From an uncultured Nitrososphaerota archaeon (GTDB taxonomy: Archaea > Thermoproteota > Nitrososphaeria > Nitrososphaerales > Gagatemarchaeaceae), in the NCBI GenBank assembly GCA_963718895.1, contig CAVRAG010000007.1, positions 96,001-160,000 of the forward strand: DNA of 64,000 nt, written 5' to 3'. The translations under genes and the position numbers were made by a program. Numbering within the stretch: position 1 is the first letter of the stretch; the number at the start of each line of letters is the position of its first letter. Positions 29,407-38,416 of the stretch are shown here, piece after piece. The notes beneath the pieces were generated by a model that ran no database searches, was not told where the DNA came from, and worked only from the letters and a program-made list of their open reading frames with translations.

Positions 29407-30327
29407 TCAGAGCTGAGGGAGCGAGCCTATCCCTTCTCTGATCGTCTCGACGCCCTTCATGAACTGTGCCTTCTCCCCTTCGTCGAGAACCAGCTCGTAG
29501 ACCTCCTCCACGCCCTTCGCTCCCAGCATCAGAGGAACGCCGATGCAAAGACCACCCACGCCGTACTTTCCGTCGAGGAAGGAAGAAGCAGGCAGCACCT
29601 CGTGCCTGTCGAGGCGACCGCCTTCACCATCCTGGCGATCGCGTTTCCGGGGGCGTCGACTGTCGCGCCCTTCTTGGAGATCACGTCGATGGCGGCCTGT
29701 CGGGTGCTCCGGATCGTCTCCTCGATCTCCTCTCGTCCGTCGAGGATCGACGTGAGGGGGACGCCGCCGATCGAGGTGTACCTCGCCAGCGGGACCATGT
29801 TCTCGCCGTGCTCCCCTATGACGAGCGCCATGATCGACGACCGGGAGACGCCCAGCTTGAGCGAGAGGACGTGCTTGAACCTCGAGAGGTCCAGGACTCC
29901 ACCCATGCCGACGACCCGGTTGACCGGGAACCCCGTCGTCTTCTGGACGACGTAGTTCATCACGTCCATCGGGTTGGTGACGGTTATGGCCACGCGCGTC
30001 CGGGGCGTGCTTCGCGACCTCCTTCGCCACGGACGCGACTATCCCGGCGTTCTTGCCAAGCAGGTCCATCCTCGTCATCCCGGGCTTCCGGGCGAGGCCG
30101 GCTGTGATGACCACGACGTCCGCGCCCGCGCATGCTCGAGAAGTCGGTGGAGCCCCGTGACCGTAGACGTCGACCCCCGCCTCCGAGAGTTTGTGGCAGA
30201 TGTCCAGCGCCTCGCCCTCGGCGAGGCCGGGGACGATGTCCACCAGTACGAGGTCGTCAATGCCCATGGAGGCGACCTCGAGCGCGGCCTGGGCGCCCAC
30301 CCGTCCGGCTCCTAGGAAACCGATCAA
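29407..30327 (-). CDS. mdh: LDH-like malate dehydrogenase (multiple frameshifts)
   Basis: GAGRVG, ITAGLARKPGMTRMDL..N, VTNPMD, LDLSRF, GEHGE spread over several frames. Confidence 0.88.
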   Translation of the reverse strand: MIGFLGAGRVGAQAALEVASMGIDDLVLVDIVPGLAEGEALDICHKLSEAGVDVYGHGAPPTSRACAGADVVVITAGLARKPGMTRMDLLGKNAGIVASVAKEVAKHAPDARGHNRHQPDGRDELRRPEDDGVPGQPGRRHGWSPGPLEVQARPLAQAGRLPVVDHGARHRGARREHGPAGEVHLDRRRPPHVDPRRTRGDRGDDPEHPTGRHRRDLQEGRDSRRPRKRDRQDGEGGRLDRHEVLPASSFLDGKYGVGGLCIGVPLMLGAKGVEEVYELVLDEGEKAQFMKGVETIREGIGSLPQL

Positions 30328-31577: not shown

Positions 31578-32521
31578 ATGTCATCTGAACGAGACTTCTC
31601 GAGACTGATGAGGTTGCAGAGGGCGTTGGACAAGTGCCCGAGGTGCGGGAAAGGCCCGATGGTGGTGGACAACGCAACGGCGGCGAGCTCGTCTGCAGCA
31701 ACTGCGGGTTCGTGGTCAAGGAGAAGATCGAGGAGACAGGGCCGGAATGGAGGGCGTTCTCGAAGGAGGAGAAGGACGACAGGTCCAGGGGCGGCATCCC
31801 CGACCTCGATAGCGATGCACGACATGGGGCTGGCCACGGTCATAGGCGGGGTCAACAAGGACGCCTCTGGCAAGTCGCTCTCGGCCTCGATGAAGGCGAC
31901 GGTGGAGAGGCTCAGGACGTGGGACAGCCGGAGCCAGGTCCACGAGCCGATGGACAGGAACCTGAGGCAGGCCTTCAGCGAGCTCGACAGGCTCTCGGAC
32001 AAGCTGTCCGTCTCGGACGCCGTGGTCGAGAAGGCCGCTTACATCTACAGGAAGGCCCTGGAGCGCGGGCTGGTGCAGGGGAAGGTCGATCTCCGCGATA
32101 ATCGCCGCCTCACTCTACGCCGCCTGCAGGGACAGGGAGACGCCGAGGACCCTCAAGGACCTTGCTGTGGTCTCCAACGTCAAGAAGAAGGACATCGCCA
32201 GGTGCTACAGGCTGCTCCTCAAGGAGATGGACATCAAGATGCCCGTGGTCGACCCGACCAAGTGCGTCTCAAGGATAGCGTCCAGGGCGCAGCCTCTCCG
32301 AGAGGACGAAGAGGAGGGCGCTGGAGATACTCAAGAAGGCCGAGGAGGCGCGGATCTCGGCCGGGAAGGACCCGATGGGGCTCGCGGCCGCGGCGCTCTA
32401 CGTGTCGTGCACCCTCGAGGGCGAGGACAAGACCCAGAGGGACGTCGCCGAGGCTGCCGGAGTGACCGAGGTCACAATCCGGAACAGGTACAAGGGGCTC
32501 AGGTCGGCCCTCGGAATATGA
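31578..32521 (+). CDS. tfb: Transcription initiation factor IIB (frameshifted)
   Basis: CPRCG...CSNCG ribbon, GPEWRAF, HDMGLAT, cyclin repeats, GKDPMGLAAAALY, VTEVTIRNRY across frames. Confidence 0.92.
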
Positions 32522-32536
32522 GAACTGCCGGGTGCA

Positions 32537-32588
32537 AATCTCTAAAGTGAGTTAGAGATTACACAGAAATTTCACCGCAATATATAAG
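32537..32588 (+). promoter_or_regulatory. Inverted-repeat operator and TATA box of the tandem Lrp-type gene
   Basis: AATCTCTAA-N6-TTAGAGATT (32537-32560), then TATATAAG at 32581. Confidence 0.6.
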
Positions 32589-32622
32589 TAACGAGTCCGC
32601 GGGGCCAACGCCAACGACCTCA

Positions 32623-33825
32623 ATGTCTCTAGAGAGAGCCGGCGGGAACAGGGAAGAAGAAAGTTCGAACATCAAGACGGGTCAGCTGGCAAAGCTGATC
32701 ACCGAGGTAGGGCCGAACATCTCGGAGATTGCGAGACGGCTCGGTCAGTACAAGGAGTCCGTCCGCTACAGGTACAAGGAGAAGTTGCTCAACAAAGGTT
32801 TCGCGGTCCGGGTCGCCGTCGACCACGAGAAACTCGGGCTGCGCCGGGTCATCATGCTCATGGACTTCGCCGACGGGTACAGGGACGTCGCGGAGTTGAT
32901 GCTTACAATAATGAGCTATGAAGGCTATCTGGTCGCCTTCGAGAAGGTCCTGCCTGACGGGAGGTTCCTCGTGCACGCGTCCGTGCCTGACGAGCAGGTC
33001 GAGGCCTACCGGGAGTTCTTCAGCGGCTTGAGAGAGAAGGGCTACTTCAGGTCGTTCGAGTTCCACACGTTCCACTGGTTCAGGAACTCTCCGATGAAGA
33101 CGGAGATGTACAACTTCGACGAAGGACTCTGGGACTTCGACTGGTCCACTGAGGTGAAGGTTGACAGGCAGGTTGCGTCCTACATGCCTTCGGCGAGAGA
33201 GAAGTTCGACGCCACCGACCTGCAGATCCTCAAGCAGCTCCAGATGGACGGCAACAGGAGCCTCTCCGAGATGGCCGAGAAGCTCAAAATCAACTACAAG
33301 ACGCTCACCTGGCACTTCAGGAAGCACATCGAGGAGAGGAAGCTCATCAAGGGGTACTTGATCAACTGGATGGGGACGAAGTACGACTACAAGGCAGACA
33401 GGGCGCTAAACAAGAAGCACACCTATCTCGCGGTCTCCGTCCTATTCTCAGACCTGGATCAGGCGAAGAGGATTGACGTCATGTCCCGCCTCAACCAGCT
33501 CCCCTTCATCTGGTCCGAGGCCGTCGGAGACAGGTACGAGGCAGAGCTCATCTTCCCGATCGAGTCGATCACAGAGGGGCTCCAGCTCCTGGCCGAGGTC
33601 ATCTCCGAGACCAAGACCAGCGCACGTTACTTCATCATCGACCAGCGCCACGCCCTTTCGTTCAGCATCATCCCCGAGCTCTACAACGAGTCCAAGCAGA
33701 CCTGGGAGTTCAACGACCAGCTTCTCATGCGGCGGTTCGAGAACCTGCTCCAGAGGGCAAAGGGGATAGAGCAAGAAAGCCTATCGCTGCGAAAGACGAA
33801 ACCTGGCCAGCAGATCGGCAGGTAG
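32623..33825 (+). CDS. Tandem Lrp/AsnC-like regulator (two wHTH plus effector-like modules)
   Basis: GPNISEIARRLG...SVRYRY and DATDLQILKQLQMDGNRSLSEMAEKL HTH motifs, each followed by a beta/alpha domain. Confidence 0.75.
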   Translation: MSLERAGGNREEESSNIKTGQLAKLITEVGPNISEIARRLGQYKESVRYRYKEKLLNKGFAVRVAVDHEKLGLRRVIMLMDFADGYRDVAELMLTIMSYEGYLVAFEKVLPDGRFLVHASVPDEQVEAYREFFSGLREKGYFRSFEFHTFHWFRNSPMKTEMYNFDEGLWDFDWSTEVKVDRQVASYMPSAREKFDATDLQILKQLQMDGNRSLSEMAEKLKINYKTLTWHFRKHIEERKLIKGYLINWMGTKYDYKADRALNKKHTYLAVSVLFSDLDQAKRIDVMSRLNQLPFIWSEAVGDRYEAELIFPIESITEGLQLLAEVISETKTSARYFIIDQRHALSFSIIPELYNESKQTWEFNDQLLMRRFENLLQRAKGIEQESLSLRKTKPGQQIGR

Positions 33826-34004
33826 CCGACCCTGCTGCACGGGTCGTCCCGTGATCCCAGAATCCGCCGAAGGCGCATCGATGCGCGTAAGGGGCTTGTT
33901 CCTGGAAGAGGAGAGGGCCGATTGATAGGTAGAGCAGGAACTCTTTTGGTCGTCCGGCTGCTTCAGCGAGTCCCCTAACCCGCCGCAGAACGCCCGCGGG
34001 ACAT

Positions 34005-34020
34005 GGAAAGAAAAGGCGCC
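34005..34020 (-). terminator. T-rich terminator candidate after the repeat-peptide gene
   Basis: Minus strand GGCGCCTTTTCTTTCC about 40 nt after the stop codon. Confidence 0.4.
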
Positions 34021-34053
34021 CCCAGGGCAAGGAGCGCTAGTAGCTCAGTTTGT

Positions 34054-34242
34054 TCAGTTGCTCGGCCCGAATCCGCCGATGGGGTCCAGGGTTACATAGC
34101 TCGGTCCGAACCCGCCTATTGGATCGCAGCTAGGACCGAATCCGCCTATTGGGTCGAGAGTCAGATAGCTCGGCCCGAATCCGCCGATGGGGTCGCAGCT
34201 AGGTCCGAAACCTCCGATTGGGTCTTCTGATTGAGTGCTCAT
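34054..34242 (-). CDS. 62-aa repeat peptide with 5x DPIGGFGPS (candidate multi-core precursor)
   Basis: Five 27-nt copies identical in amino acids but differing at third codon positions; ATG and TGA close to the repeats; upstream TATA-like box. Confidence 0.85.
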   Translation of the reverse strand: MSTQSEDPIGGFGPSCDPIGGFGPSYLTLDPIGGFGPSCDPIGGFGPSYVTLDPIGGFGPSN

Positions 34243-34266
34243 GCAATATGGCTAGCATGGCACGGA

Positions 34267-34294
34267 GTTAAGCTTAGTGATTTCTTAGTATCAC
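34267..34294 (-). promoter_or_regulatory. TATA-like box and GTGAT-N8-ATCAC inverted repeat upstream of the peptide gene
   Basis: CTTAAC (34267-34272, minus strand) about 25 nt before ATG; inverted repeat 34277-34294 just upstream, over the BRE position. Confidence 0.5.
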
Positions 34295-34327
34295 AGTGCA
34301 ATAGTTCATGCGGATTCCAAGATTAGG

Positions 34328-34855
34328 TCAGCCTTCCTTGACCCGGTTCTTCTTCATCTTCCTCAGCTCCTCCTCGGTGAAGAGCGTCCCGAAGTGCGTC
34401 GCGAGGATCTTGACATAGGTCTCGGTCTCCCTCTCGTTCATGTACTGGAACATGTAGTTCCCCCGGTAGGGTGAGGGTTCGCCGTCCCTCGAGATGAACT
34501 CGATGTGGATCAGCGGGTCTCCGTGCCTCACGGTTATCGGCGACCTCTCGTTGTTGAGGTTGACGAGCTCGAGGGCCAGCCTCCCCACGAAGCCGCTGTG
34601 GACCTTCACCGAGTTCAAGAAGGATAGCCCCATCCGCCCGAATCGGCTCTTGGCGGTAAGGTGAGCCACGTAGTTGGGCGGCGTGAAGATGACCTCCTTG
34701 GAGACCATGTTCCTGTGTTCCAGATAGTTCAGCGTCCTGTCCTCCCTGACCGTGAGTACGTAGCCGTCGCCGTCGAAGCCCTCGGGCGAGGTCGGGGAGA
34801 TTACCCTGTACTTCTCGACGAGCTCAGTCAGGATTGATTTGCCGATTACTGTCAT
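34328..34855 (-). CDS. dcd: dCTP deaminase/trimeric dUTPase family
   Basis: AKSRFGRMGL, VHSGFVGRLALELVN, PYRGNY..Q. Confidence 0.8.
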   Translation of the reverse strand: MTVIGKSILTELVEKYRVISPTSPEGFDGDGYVLTVREDRTLNYLEHRNMVSKEVIFTPPNYVAHLTAKSRFGRMGLSFLNSVKVHSGFVGRLALELVNLNNERSPITVRHGDPLIHIEFISRDGEPSPYRGNYMFQYMNERETETYVKILATHFGTLFTEEELRKMKKNRVKEG

Positions 34856-35885
34856 CCGCAGTCACCCCTCCCCGCGTGTTAATAACTCGCTTGAGGAGGC
34901 GGCTGGCGAAGTAGACCAGGCCCGGCAGCCCCAGCAGGAAGACGATGTCTATCGTAGGCACGAAGCTGTAGACGCTGTTGGAAGTCCAGGAGATCCCGTA
35001 TGCGGCCTGCCCATAGAACGCGAAGGCGTTGGCTGCGTAGTCGACGGCCCAGTGGAAGATGATGCTCGCGTGGAGCCCGTATCTGACGTAGAGATAGGCG
35101 AGCGCGACCCCGTCCAGGGCCGCCTCGCTGACCTTTCCGATGTCCCACCCGGCGCCGGAGAGGAAGTGGGCCAGTCCGAAGAGAATCGAGCTCAGGACGA
35201 TAAGGAAGTAGACGAGCACCCTCAGGGTGGGGGCAGAGTAGACCTCGGGCCCTCCGCCGGAGACGCCCTCCCACGCCGAGGAGGGCCGCCAGAGCGCCTT
35301 CAGCATTCGCGTCACGCTCGACCTCGTGAGGAGCATGACGAAGACGAGGGGTACGCCTATCAGGAAGAACCGGAATCCGACCTCCTCGATAAGTGGGGCG
35401 AGGGTGAAGCTCACGAGGAGCCCGTAGGGATCTCCGGAGAGGCCCCCAGAGGGGACGCCGGCGGACGTCTGGAAGAGATCAAGGATTATCGTCGCGAGGA
35501 GCGTCGCGCCAAGGATCATTATCGTCGCCGAGAGCGGGTTTCGCAGAAGGGCGCCCATTCCCTCCCTGGACGCGTCCTTCAGGGCGCGGACGAACCCCCC
35601 TCCCTGCACCGAGGCGAGAGCAAGGAAGAAGGCGAAGAGGACCGTCAGGGAGGCGAAGAGGATCCCGAAAGTGGGGCTGATGGGGAGGGAGATCGCGAAG
35701 AGACCGATGTAGATCGGGACCGAGGCGATCTGGGTCTGATAGGTGTACGGCGGGGTACTCGTCGAGAGGTGGGGCGAGAGGATGGCGTACGTCCCGAACG
35801 GGATGGACAGGACGAAAAGTATCAGCGTGAGCGCCACGATCGCGGCATAGACCAGTCCTGGGACATTGAGCCGGGGCCGCTCCAA
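34824..35885 (-). CDS. CPBP (CAAX/Abi) intramembrane glutamic protease
   Basis: EEVGFR, FGLAH, HWAVD motifs; multi-TM. Confidence 0.88.
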   Translation of the reverse strand: MERPRLNVPGLVYAAIVALTLILFVLSIPFGTYAILSPHLSTSTPPYTYQTQIASVPIYIGLFAISLPISPTFGILFASLTVLFAFFLALASVQGGGFVRALKDASREGMGALLRNPLSATIMILGATLLATIILDLFQTSAGVPSGGLSGDPYGLLVSFTLAPLIEEVGFRFFLIGVPLVFVMLLTRSSVTRMLKALWRPSSAWEGVSGGGPEVYSAPTLRVLVYFLIVLSSILFGLAHFLSGAGWDIGKVSEAALDGVALAYLYVRYGLHASIIFHWAVDYAANAFAFYGQAAYGISWTSNSVYSFVPTIDIVFLLGLPGLVYFASRLLKRVINTRGGVTADDSNRQINPD

Positions 35886-36174: not shown

Positions 36175-37644
36175 TCAGGATACCAGGACGGGCACGTAGA
36201 CCGACCTTGAGGTCAGCCCGTCGGAGACCGTCATCAGGAGGAGGTACTGGCCGACGGCCGTCGATGCGGCGACCCGGACGCTGACGCTGACCCCGACCGC
36301 CCGTGGAGGGACGCGATCGAGGTGACGTTCGAGACGAATGAGAGCTTATCCGGGACGGAGCTGATGGACTCCGAGTCCGAGAAGGTGACGTTCAGGGGCC
36401 TGGTCGAGGTCCCCGTGATCTTGAGCTGGAACTGCGCGGAGGAGCCCGCCGCTATCGGCGTGACCGTGCCGTTGGCGGTCGAGGAGACCGAGAAGGAAGG
36501 CACGACCGAGTCGTTGACGAACCCGACCTGGTTCGCGGTCCATGCGGTGAACCAGACGAGGTTTCTGTCGAGCGCGATCGTGAGCGCGTTCCCTATGCCC
36601 ACCTCGTCTATGGGGACGGGGGACATCGCGTACTCCGTCAGTGACGTCTCGTTGGTCGATCTGGGCCACCCTGTTCGCGTCATGCTCGTTGAACCAGACC
36701 GAACTCCCGTTGGCCAAGAGGTAGTAGGGCAGGGTCAGCGGGAGCTTCGGGTCCGTCGAAGTGGGGTAGAACGTCCAGTTGTCGGCATTGGTGTCGTAGG
36801 AGGCGACGTAGGAAGCCTCGTGCTCTCCCACCCAGATCGACCCCTGGGAGACGGCAACGCTGTATGGTCCAAGGAGCGTCTGGTTGCCCCCCACCTGCTG
36901 GAAGGCCATCGCAGCGGCAAGCGGGTCGAACGAGAAGATCTGGCCATGGTTGTCCTGCGGGTTCACCGTGACGACGTAGGCAAGGGTGGCGTCGTGGAAG
37001 AGCATGGAAGCGGTGTACTCACCCGTGGCCGCGGGGACCGAGTGGTAGACCGGCGGGGCGGTCGCGTTGCGTATCATGCCGACCTGTCCGGGAGGCGAGG
37101 TCTCGGTGAACCAGAGGTTGTCCTCGGGATCGATGGCCAGGAAACGAGGGACGACGCTGGGTCCCAGAGGGACCACGGTGAACGACCCCGTCGTCTGGTT
37201 CATGCCGACCAGCTGGTTGTTGGCAGGGTCCGAGGCCCAGACCAGACCGTTCCAGAGGACGACCCCCCAGATCTCCGAGCGGTCGAAGCAGAGGGAGTCC
37301 GGCGTGGAGTTGGGAAAGGGCCACGGGTACTCGACCAGCGTCCCGTTGAGAGGGAAGAGGTGAGCCAGCCCGGGGACCGCGACTTCACCGAACCAGACGG
37401 AGCCGTCCGGCGCCGCTGTTATCGAGTTGGGACTCCTCAGAGGCGAGGGGAGGCTGAAGGTCGTGACGCTCCCGAACTGCGACCTCGTCAGCTGCACCCG
37501 CTGCACCGAGGTGAGGTTCGCGCAAGCGGCCTGCCCCGAAGAACTGCTCGTGCCCGTCCGTTCCTGGACAAGGACGTAGGAGCCCGCGGCTATCGCCCCG
37601 GCGAGCAGGAGGACGACGATGACCGAGACGTACCTGGCTCGCAC
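36175..37644 (-). CDS. Secreted Vgb/NHL-repeat beta-propeller protein (frameshifted)
   Basis: Signal/TM segment; P..I...PDG.VWF.E repeats; C-terminal Ig-like domain in shifted frames. Confidence 0.78.
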
Positions 37645-37688
37645 GGCTTCATCGCGCCCCCGGAGGACGTTTTACGGGTTTCGCGGAA

Positions 37689-38324
37689 TCACGCGACGAC
37701 GTTGATCGTGCCATCCATCCAGATCGGGTGCCACTCGCAGAAGTAGGTGTACCTGCCGGGGGTCGTAAAGGTCATGCAGTTCGCCAGCACGCCGGTGGTG
37801 ACGCAGGTGTTGCCCGTGCCGGGCAGGCTGTAGAACTGGAACGGCTGGCCGCTCGTCGGCCATGCGGTCGACTCCAGGATGTGCTCCTGGTCGTCGTGGT
37901 TGGTGAAGAAGACCGTGTTGTTCACCCCGATGACTATGGTGATGTTGATCGGCTCGAACGAGACCTTGTTGGCGAGGTTCTCGATGCCCGGCGGGATTAT
38001 CACCTGCACCTCACTCTTGTTGGCGGAGGCCGAGCTCGTGCGGCTGATGCCTGAGCTGGTAGAGCTGGCTGAGCCGGAAGCTGACGAGGTGGTTGGGGAG
38101 ACGGTCGAAGCTGAACTCGAGGAGGAAGTGGCCGCAGACGACCCCGTCGAGCTCGTGGCTTGGGACGTGGCGATGGAAGACGTCGAGGACGCCGTAGTCC
38201 GGCCGCCCGTGCCCTGGGAGAAGGCGAGGTAAGAGCCGACACCCGCAAGGGCCACGATGACGAACACGAGGATGACCGCGACGCTGGAGGTTACGGCCCT
38301 CCTCTCGCTCGTGTGCTGTCTCAT
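37689..38324 (-). CDS. Membrane-anchored cupredoxin (blue copper protein)
   Basis: N-terminal TM, Ser/Thr linker, H...YFCEWHPIWM type-1 Cu ligands. Confidence 0.88.
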   Translation of the reverse strand: MRQHTSERRAVTSSVAVILVFVIVALAGVGSYLAFSQGTGGRTTASSTSSIATSQATSSTGSSAATSSSSSASTVSPTTSSASGSASSTSSGISRTSSASANKSEVQVIIPPGIENLANKVSFEPINITIVIGVNNTVFFTNHDDQEHILESTAWPTSGQPFQFYSLPGTGNTCVTTGVLANCMTFTTPGRYTYFCEWHPIWMDGTINVVA

Positions 38325-38416
38325 TCTGTTCAGAAAAATGTGCGCCATTTGCGATTTAAGGATTCTTCACTTTGGTCGCCAAACTCTATAAGGATAGTGG
38401 CTCAACTGGGGAACCG

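Follow-up and report, generated by a model that had tools for sequence, protein, structure and literature searches.

A tandem Lrp-type regulator and its partner peptide gene in Nitrososphaerales: a candidate archaeal peptide-sensing pair

In the genome of a peat-soil type archaeon, a short gene for a repetitive peptide lies tail to tail with a gene for a regulator-like protein. Do the two form a peptide-sensing pair? Archaeal quorum sensing is called poorly characterised in passages of recent papers (PMC12240190, PMC13464002). In Haloferax, the one model system treated there, the signal is an as yet unidentified small molecule that withstands proteinase K and works through a two-component system (PMC12240190, PMC13464002), and the sections concerned state that this signal is not a large peptide (PMC12240190, PMC13464002, PMC13286277). 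We found no description of an Lrp-regulator/peptide pair in the open literature, subscription journals and supplements aside, and no prior description of archaeal peptide sensing of this kind. If the reading developed below is true, a gene-encoded peptide and its cognate cytosolic receptor would make a defined archaeal signal-receptor pair, and the range of Lrp effectors would widen from amino acids to peptides. The hosts are uncultured, and the system can be tested with synthetic 10-16-mers and one recombinant protein.

The original prediction described a 400-aa ORF ending about 230 nt from the stop of the peptide gene. Both genes are present in the window (the whole 64,000-nt stretch of DNA analysed), convergent and with 228 nt between their stops. 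The pair sits between tfb and dcd, as had been said; tfb, the upstream neighbour, is interrupted by frameshifts in this assembly, and dcd lies downstream. The genes, and the features that go with them, are as follows.

32623..33825, + strand: regulator gene, encoding a 400-aa tandem Lrp/AsnC-fold protein, wHTH-RAM-wHTH-RAM (ORF, Pfam, AlphaFold model)
34054..34242, - strand: leaderless 62-aa peptide gene with five DPIGGFGPS units (ORF list)
34198-34224, 34168-34194, 34129-34155, 34099-34125, 34060-34086, - strand: the DPIGGFGPS units, in order
34016..34037, - strand: GC stem then T-rich run past the peptide stop, a possible terminator (pattern scan)
34824..35885, - strand: Rce1-like (CAAX) membrane protease gene, two genes upstream of the peptide (PF02517, E 5.7e-10)

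The pattern scan found three terminator-type patterns where 1.6 were expected. The folding energy of the stem at 34016-34037 is no better than that of shuffles (z -0.57); the T-rich run is retained in orthologues. The CAAX protease cluster occurs in 15 loci, 12 at the tfb/dcd-type locus seen here and 3 beside distant cassettes. We regard the protease as context and at most as a candidate processing enzyme.

The peptide reads MSTQSE followed by the five units, linked by C or YxTL. All 41 pairwise codon differences among the units are silent and fall at third positions, so that 7 of 9 third positions vary and 0 of the 18 others. Among 16 units from four genomes, 452 differences are silent and 28 are D/E swaps. 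Since the differences between units are silent, the gene is real and selected for its amino acids. A profile built from 81 leader-bearing peptides of relatives, with no leaderless form included, finds the window peptide with an E-value of 5e-5 among 29,410 segments; its Pfam MSSP match is below cut-off. Peat RNA yielded a 175-nt contig over 34048-34222 with 1 mismatch, in one of four runs that were chosen with this stretch and come from a single study. This is weak evidence that the peptide gene is transcribed. The dcd and CAAX genes had no cover in the same four runs, whose contigs cannot rank genes.

Two Lrp/AsnC-like modules had been proposed for the regulator, and the domain and structure searches bear this out. 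Pfam places HTH_24/HTH_AsnC at residues 196-234, with PF13404 above cut-off, and matches the N-terminal HTH weakly. Every NCBIfam Lrp model scores far below its cut-off. The AlphaFold model (72 homologues as input; pLDDT 89.7, pTM 0.86) has two wHTH-RAM modules, and the structure it resembles most is that of NirDL, a fused siroheme decarboxylase (Foldseek E 8e-9, 12% identity). A VIA alignment to NirDL covers 285 residues (Z 16.6, rmsd 4.4, 10% identity), with the next best match at Z 9.4. After NirDL, single Lrp proteins match the second half of the regulator (PH0061: Z 9.2, rmsd 2.8, 143 aligned), and both halves resemble solved Lrp proteins. BLAST of one half against the other found no significant similarity (E 0.097); the case for an internal duplication therefore rests on structure. 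The confident model contains no TPR-like peptide-binding domain and has two alpha/beta RAM-type domains instead. No TPR or RiPP-recognition protein is among the fold matches listed, and the ESM Atlas matches listed are unnamed or generic Lrp clusters only.

The regulator belongs to a family with 465 homologues and 565 representatives of 50%-identity clusters. This family is present in all 23 genomes of the genus, with 1-10 matches apiece, and the window's genome holds six copies, one of them frameshifted. The nearest named relative is from Ca. Gagatemarchaeum (89% identical), whose family is described in parts of PMC10640624 as soil-dwelling, non-ammonia-oxidising, rich in duplicated genes and equipped with several ABC transporters for peptides.

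How faithfully does a peptide gene accompany the regulator? We assembled 240 loci with 231 full-length regulators; 174 remained after 95% dereplication and 163 of these had at least 300 nt downstream. Among these 163 counted rows, a convergent peptide match stands beside 99 of the 101 close regulators. In the other two, the peptide is relocated (L004) or there is none (L016). Reversed decoys of 37,378 segments gave no peptide-profile match. In the two distant bands a peptide was detected beside 11 of 26 and 10 of 36 regulators (the latter 6 convergent and 4 divergent), counts that are too low, with peptide-like ORFs visible by eye at L059 and L069. All of these pairing counts are partly circular, two profiles having been seeded from 45 and 14 rows of the same loci.

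Searching in the other direction, from peptide to regulator, is not tied to a place. In the window's genome each of the six regulator copies has one of the six top segments (of 104,752) next to it, at E-values from 2e-19 to 0.14; the sixth segment is degenerate. Each copy has its own distinct tail. Across 151 genomes of the order, 59 peptide matches reach E <=0.001, and 55 of them have a regulator no more than 700 nt away (44 in convergent and 11 in divergent orientation). The other four comprise two at contig ends and two true orphans, one beside a transposase; no hidden regulator was found near either orphan. No peptide match occurs in 300 other genomes of the phylum. Near-obligate pairing in this Nitrososphaerales family is thus established.

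The genes around the pair change by clade: VIT1/OsmC/ADH in the main clade, tfb/dcd here, and KaiC beside a peptide-less subfamily. The pair rather than the neighbourhood is therefore the unit. Of the 32 commonest neighbour clusters in 180 loci, 17 were scanned with Pfam, and no tailoring enzyme was found; nor does a transporter recur beside the pair. Distant paralogues, including the KaiC-associated subfamily, often lack a detectable peptide, so the fold can work without one. The original prediction of a two-gene module stands as far as the pairing goes, strongly supported in both directions. It had expected short repeat ORFs beside the homologues; the module proves wider than that, since in most homologues the neighbouring small peptide is a single-core, leader-bearing one of 40 aa and not a repeat peptide.

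In a typical relative, the convergent ORF is about 40 aa long, and 0-45 nt usually separate its stop from that of the regulator. Its product starts with MTxDEKIRxG, continues with about 17 hydrophobic residues and ends in a tail such as GPLEIIGGFGTS. Pfam names none of three leader-bearing peptides tested. Signal peptidase I follows a (-3,-1) small-residue rule. In the relatives, residue 23 is S, T or A in 78 of the 79 peptides with Gly25, and a cut after Gly25 would leave a 15-residue tail in 70 of the 79. Lysine and arginine are in excess before the helix in 89 of 95 leader-bearing peptides and after it in 0 of 95. A model of a leader-bearing peptide has a helix at 3-23 and a low-confidence tail. 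These features suggest that the 40-aa relatives likely carry an export leader; a leader with a C-terminal core is predicted in 95 of them, whereas the window's own peptide is leaderless. The leader is strongly conserved, with many positions under 0.5 bits (70 sequences).

Where did the leader go? We built a quick IQ-TREE from 90 regulators, with midpoint rooting and SH-aLRT as the sole support measure. On it the leaderless rows make up a 7-member clade (SH-aLRT 99) nested in a clade of 12 (100) whose other members are leader-bearing. Those members have LDPIGGAGP- or LDPTGxGP-type tails at the same tfb/dcd locus. Among the leaderless forms, L003, L006 and L103 encode single-core peptides of 15-16 aa and L005 one of 20 aa; L001 and L102 have three cores, and L002 and the window five. 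L230, at a contig end, has at least 2 copies of a different core, and its tfb and regulator appear inverted relative to the peptide. The series thus includes copy numbers of 1, at least 2, 3 and 5 and involves two different cores. In length and register, the single-copy leaderless products agree with the predicted mature tail. The window's lineage has apparently dropped the leader, and its tail persists as one copy or as two to five. Both leader loss and core multiplication recur, since a leaderless peptide of 15 aa also occurs with the distant paralogue L192, and L069 combines a leader with two cores.

The promoters of the two genes hold the following elements.

32537..32560, no strand: perfect 9-bp inverted repeat with a 6-nt spacer (sequence)
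32552..32566, + strand: 15-bp box in the regulator promoter, likely an operator (family and clade matrices)
32580..32588, + strand: regulator TATA-like box (sequence; kept in L001, L003, L106, L108)
34267..34272, - strand: peptide TATA-like box (kept in 8 aligned promoters; strongest column block among 90 promoters)
34273..34287, - strand: second, weaker box-like match, abutting the peptide TATA (10.4 bits)
34306..34320, - strand: 15-bp box in the peptide promoter, likely an activator site (16.1 bits, held-out matrix)

The 15-bp box is asymmetric and was found by anchoring 90 peptide promoters on TATA. With the window's clade held out, it occurs in 70 of 83 peptide promoters, and 63 of the 70 sites lie 47-50 nt before TATA. 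The window's peptide box starts 48 nt before TATA and is the best match in 32300-34500. By the same matrix, 23 of 47 regulator upstream regions pass 8 bits (shuffle mean 1.4, max 5), so the box is shared by both promoters of the pair. On the regulator side it usually abuts TATA; in the window's clade it stands 14 nt before TATA, and the window's own copy ends 13-14 nt before the TATA-like box. With the family matrix the box at 32552-32566 scores 6.5 bits, below the 8-bit cut; with a clade matrix from which the window was left out it scores 20.0. The scores of orthologues at this position range from 7 to 22 bits. Archaeal regulators usually activate from upstream sites and repress from sites that overlap the BRE. 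From the box we infer DNA binding by the regulator and, through the site at 32552-32566, autoregulation. The lopsided box fits a protein with two unequal HTHs.

An inverted repeat had been predicted in each promoter. On the regulator side the perfect repeat is present and rare: the 3.1-Mb genome has 27 perfect 9+6+9 repeats, of which this alone is AT-rich. Its right arm starts the family box. Its left arm is retained by several members of the clade and absent from orthologues L005 and L106. Of 47 regulator upstream regions, 6 contain the 4+6+4 core of the repeat (mean of shuffles 0.125, max 2), and every one of the 6 belongs to the window's clade or to its sister. The sequence GTGAT-N8-ATCAC is present in the peptide promoter, at 34277-34294, but we rejected it as a promoter feature: 5+8+5 repeats occur at a chance-level 1.45 per kb genome-wide, and the symmetry is broken in 6 of 7 aligned orthologous promoters, with L103 alone keeping a partly symmetric form. 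What is conserved in the peptide promoter is instead the box at 34306-34320. The weaker box-like match at 34273-34287 overlaps this non-conserved repeat and may be just the BRE region.

Does the box reach other genes? A genome scan with the family matrix showed no excess of boxes 47-50 nt before TATA (6 of about 50 box-TATA pairs, 55 distances), using a TATA pattern that missed the window's own. The strict 15-letter pattern has 4 matches in 5 relatives; allowing one mismatch gives 70 matches against 43 in a reversed control, and 14 against 14 in G175. The clade matrix finds 8 genome sites at >=19.5 bits, compared with a mean of 1.0 (max 4) for 60 column-shuffled matrices. It is not enriched at 16 bits (19 against 9; 5 of the 60 shuffled matrices reach 19). 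Two of the eight sites are regulator promoters. Other sites stand in front of genes for a KaiC-like ATPase accompanied by small membrane proteins, for secreted-looking proteins and for a 292-aa protein. At the KaiC cluster, three sites recur at orthologous places in G170 and one site in G171 (two clusters, compared by eye). We treat the putative regulon as a lead only.

We consider it fairly probable that the 400-aa protein is a peptide-controlled transcription factor, working like Rgg/SHP with an unrelated fold. The DPIGGFGPS unit is likely the regulator's own peptide ligand, as judged from the pairing, which is nearly always kept among close relatives and usually involves one unit behind a likely leader. 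Candidate ligand forms in the window are DPIGGFGPSC, YVTLDPIGGFGPSN and the full 62-mer. In the ancestral form, the 40-aa precursor would be exported and cut after Gly25, and the 15-residue tail would re-enter through oligopeptide ABC transporters. The tail would occupy the cavity between the two RAM domains, where NirDL/AhbAB hold siroheme. From the box 48 nt before TATA the regulator would then switch on the peptide gene, a positive feedback; from the box beside its own BRE/TATA it would repress its own gene; and it would also act on other promoters, those of membrane and secreted proteins. The division into activating upstream sites and repressing BRE-overlapping sites is partly covered in PMC2995911.

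In the window's lineage the leader would have been deleted, leaving a gene for the mature tail alone, and the tail then multiplied. The leaderless 62-mer has no evident export route. We lean, by a modest preference, toward an internal ligand, multivalent or multi-dose, that works within the cell producing it, over leaderless export as in RopB/SIP. The genome encodes Opp-type binding proteins, four signal peptidase I genes and M50 proteases, which are permissive only. The lineage would be a natural experiment that marks the active unit, with the leader discarded and the core retained once or many times.

What bears on binding itself? Co-variation of core and effector domain, proposed as a check on the pair, is not significant after correction for kinship. 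The best column, T317, tracks the D/E of the core in raw counts (with D, 16 T and 2 V; with E, 48 V, 4 T and 4 N; 77 pairs), and correction for relatedness leaves 6 independent pairs and a median p of 1. The other top columns were rejected as clade markers. Co-folding of regulator residues 12-390 with the last 35 peptide residues gave ipSAE values of 0.02 and 0.02, with controls not folded, and speaks neither for nor against binding. Against our reading stand this lack of significant co-variation, the distant paralogues with no detectable peptide, the close regulator L016 with none, the two orphan peptides and the missing export route of the 62-mer. In addition, the conservation of the leader by far exceeds the need of a plain signal peptide, and the Lrp effectors described in the relevant parts of PMC2995911 are all amino acids or small metabolites.

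That conservation, seen across families whose regulators share just 25-30% identity, would be explained if the peptide were a membrane tether or anti-regulator: an uncut 40-aa one-helix protein whose tail keeps the regulator off DNA, with the window's form a soluble multivalent sequesterer. Such a protein would bind the regulator and carry no extracellular signal; its leaderless and repeat forms would require no export, and switching on the peptide gene via the regulator's box would give negative feedback. We think this unlikely. Judged by charge bias, 89 of the 95 peptides have their tail outside and not one has it inside; positions 23 and 25 have the small residues expected at a signal-peptidase cut; and the length of the leaderless products is that of the predicted cut product. 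Somewhat less likely again is that the regulator senses a metabolite and merely controls the peptide gene, whose product acts elsewhere as a toxin, a membrane modulator or a signal for another receptor. The box in the peptide promoter would explain the link without binding; the box also precedes unrelated genes, co-variation is not significant, and peptide-less paralogues exist. Ordinary targets, however, are not duplicated one-to-one with their regulator, and here one genome has six copies with six adjacent peptides, all with different tails. The pair also persists while the neighbours on both sides change between clades.

The least probable of these alternatives, and one we would be surprised to see confirmed, takes up the NirDL/AhbAB precedent from which the original prediction had considered an enzyme acting on the peptide. 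The peptide would be a RiPP-like precursor; the catalytic Lrp fold would modify or cyclise each DPIGGFGPS core, and the wHTH domains would read the precursor. The best structural match is indeed an enzyme, a conserved leader, variable core and multi-core repeats are RiPP traits, and H231 and H235 are invariant among the 72 aligned homologues. In AhbA/B-type enzymes the HXYXR motif faces the cavity, according to the parts of PMC4145669 on the active site. The window's regulator has no such motif, and of 185 locus proteins just 7 contain the pattern, as do 2 of 104 representatives; six of the seven matches fall where the second RAM domain begins (H266/Y268 region), which by secondary-structure order would not be the catalytic strand. 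The fold is shared, at 10-12% identity to NirDL, yet among the commonest neighbour clusters no tailoring enzymes or transporters travel with the pair, both promoters carry the conserved box, and the window's clade has dispensed with the leader, which one would expect a modifying enzyme to recognise. These three lines, the unconserved motif, the missing tailoring genes and the lost leader, weaken the enzyme alternative.

Taking the peptide-controlled transcription factor further, we see it as possible, and short of probable, that these archaea have a form of peptide communication independent of RRNPPA. The cavity of a fused Lrp protein would be the receptor, with up to ten paralogues per genome each reading its own tail. 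One lineage would have done without the leader and amplified the signal two- to five-fold, as a leaderless multi-dose pheromone or a private intracellular switch, and through the box a KaiC-like ATPase cluster, as well as membrane and secreted proteins, would come under the control of this system.

How does the pair compare with known systems? The regulator has no TPR-like receptor domain and so is not a member of RRNPPA. AloR-like receptors, searched for in bacterial and archaeal genomes, are essentially restricted to Paenibacillaceae in the results given in PMC7425212. Among the 32 commonest neighbour clusters of the 180 loci, 17 of them scanned with Pfam, we did not find the co-clustered tailoring enzyme, protease and exporter of RiPP clusters, the CAAX protease being in 15 loci only. 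The regulator is also neither a member of NirDL/AhbAB nor a canonical single-module Lrp. With NirDL/AhbAB (PDB 4ch7, 4czc, 4czd) it shares a fused or heterodimeric tandem Lrp-like fold with a cavity between two RAM sheets, as shown in parts of PMC4145669; it differs in that identity is low, HxYxR is unconserved and haem-synthesis neighbours do not recur. With Lrp/AsnC proteins (ST1022/Grp, LrpA, PH0061) it shares the wHTH + RAM module (sections of PMC2995911). Those are single-module monomers of about 15 kDa, whereas the window's protein is a 400-aa pseudo-dimer of two unequal fused modules with an asymmetric box. The effector of Lrp/AsnC proteins is an amino acid (as covered in PMC2995911); the one proposed here is a gene-encoded peptide. 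Lrp/AsnC regulators take up their amino-acid effector at the interface between dimers, bind DNA sequence-specifically and often autoregulate; for the DNA side, the counterpart observed here is the conserved box in both promoters.

On the peptide side, Rap-Phr systems of Bacillus phages likewise have several putative signal copies per precursor, but Phr precursors are secreted and cut outside the cell, whereas the window's is leaderless with five identical cores (portions of PMC11343458). RopB/SIP resembles the window in having a leaderless peptide gene beside its regulator and a regulator site in the peptide promoter, a site that is predicted here (PMC10518010, in part). The receptor folds differ, and so do the peptides: leaderless peptides of the RopB clan have 8-10 hydrophobic residues and are not cut, compared with 15-16 polar, Gly and Pro residues or multi-core chains of 39-63 residues here (PMC10518010, passages on peptide form). 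In the RopB clan such peptides leave the cell and are taken up again, by routes that this source, in the passages concerned, gives as unknown (PMC10518010). The pair would work like Rgg/SHP, although the streptococcal receptor is TPR-like and ours is a tandem Lrp/RAM fold in an archaeal host. Like the convergent Group III systems treated in parts of PMC13361665, the pair joins a cytosolic HTH regulator to a tiny convergent or divergent gene. The precursors of the leader-bearing relatives are like those of Rgg/SHP in their basic start and hydrophobic stretch, and in a core that starts with Asp/Glu and is rich in hydrophobic residues and Gly (same source, in part: PMC13361665). In Rgg/SHP and RopB/LCP systems the peptide leaves the cell, is imported again and binds the regulator; candidate transporters and peptidases for such a route are present in the window's genome. 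In both, several paralogous pairs occur per genome (PMC13361665, in the portions concerned).

The regulator of the window (the 400-aa tandem Lrp/AsnC-fold protein) carries two histidines, H231 and H235, one helical turn apart in its second HTH. This pair is invariant across 72 close homologues, and the corresponding pair is conserved at 99% in 105 broad homologues; it may form a metal site or have a structural role.

The 15-bp box common to the regulator and peptide promoters is present in three conserved copies at a cluster of small membrane proteins with a KaiC-like ATPase (loci L236, at G000:C7:18500-22500, and L243). This cluster is a candidate target of the regulator family. Two box-like sites lie back to back upstream of a protein of about 295 aa (L241:1323-2198 and L244:1702-2592), for which a Pfam search returned no match. 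Comparable site pairs, 169 nt apart, occur in genomes G171, G180 and G144. In a distant tandem Lrp subfamily (16 loci within L075-L100, e.g. L089:2293-3126), the Lrp genes are divergent from a KaiC-like ATPase gene; no peptide was detectable at these loci.

A gene for a CAAX (Rce1-like) protease lies near the window's cassette (34824-35885). By sequence clustering, genes of the same kind adjoin the distant cassettes L034, L036 and L061, and the protease is at most a candidate processing enzyme. Downstream of the locus, the stretch 36346-38348 (minus strand) encodes a Vgb-lyase/NHL repeat protein that looks secreted, along with a blue-copper protein whose linker is long and rich in Ser/Thr.

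In the present assembly, tfb (31578-32521) is broken across several reading frames; it is intact in the orthologous loci L104 and L230. Since several other window genes also look frameshifted, for example a dehydrogenase-like ORF at 29407-30327, the split probably reflects sequencing indels. At L230 (G170:C134, 4578-7046), the orientation of tfb plus the regulator appears reversed with respect to the peptide gene. The latter is retained upstream, on the same strand, and has two or more copies of a core differing from the window's; the contig ends within this gene.

Genome G000 has two near-identical distant cassettes (C8:1143085-1144320 and C4:238842-240079). The same pair of small genes precedes each of them, and the regulator gene of the C4 cassette carries a frameshift. 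The peptides of the two cassettes are 47-48 aa long, with C-termini DGDPIGGGPT and GDPIGPGGPT. The distant paralogue L192 (G156:C35) has a 15-aa peptide, leaderless (without the basic/hydrophobic export leader) and closely resembling the single-copy form of the window clade, consistent with either independent loss of the leader or a swap.
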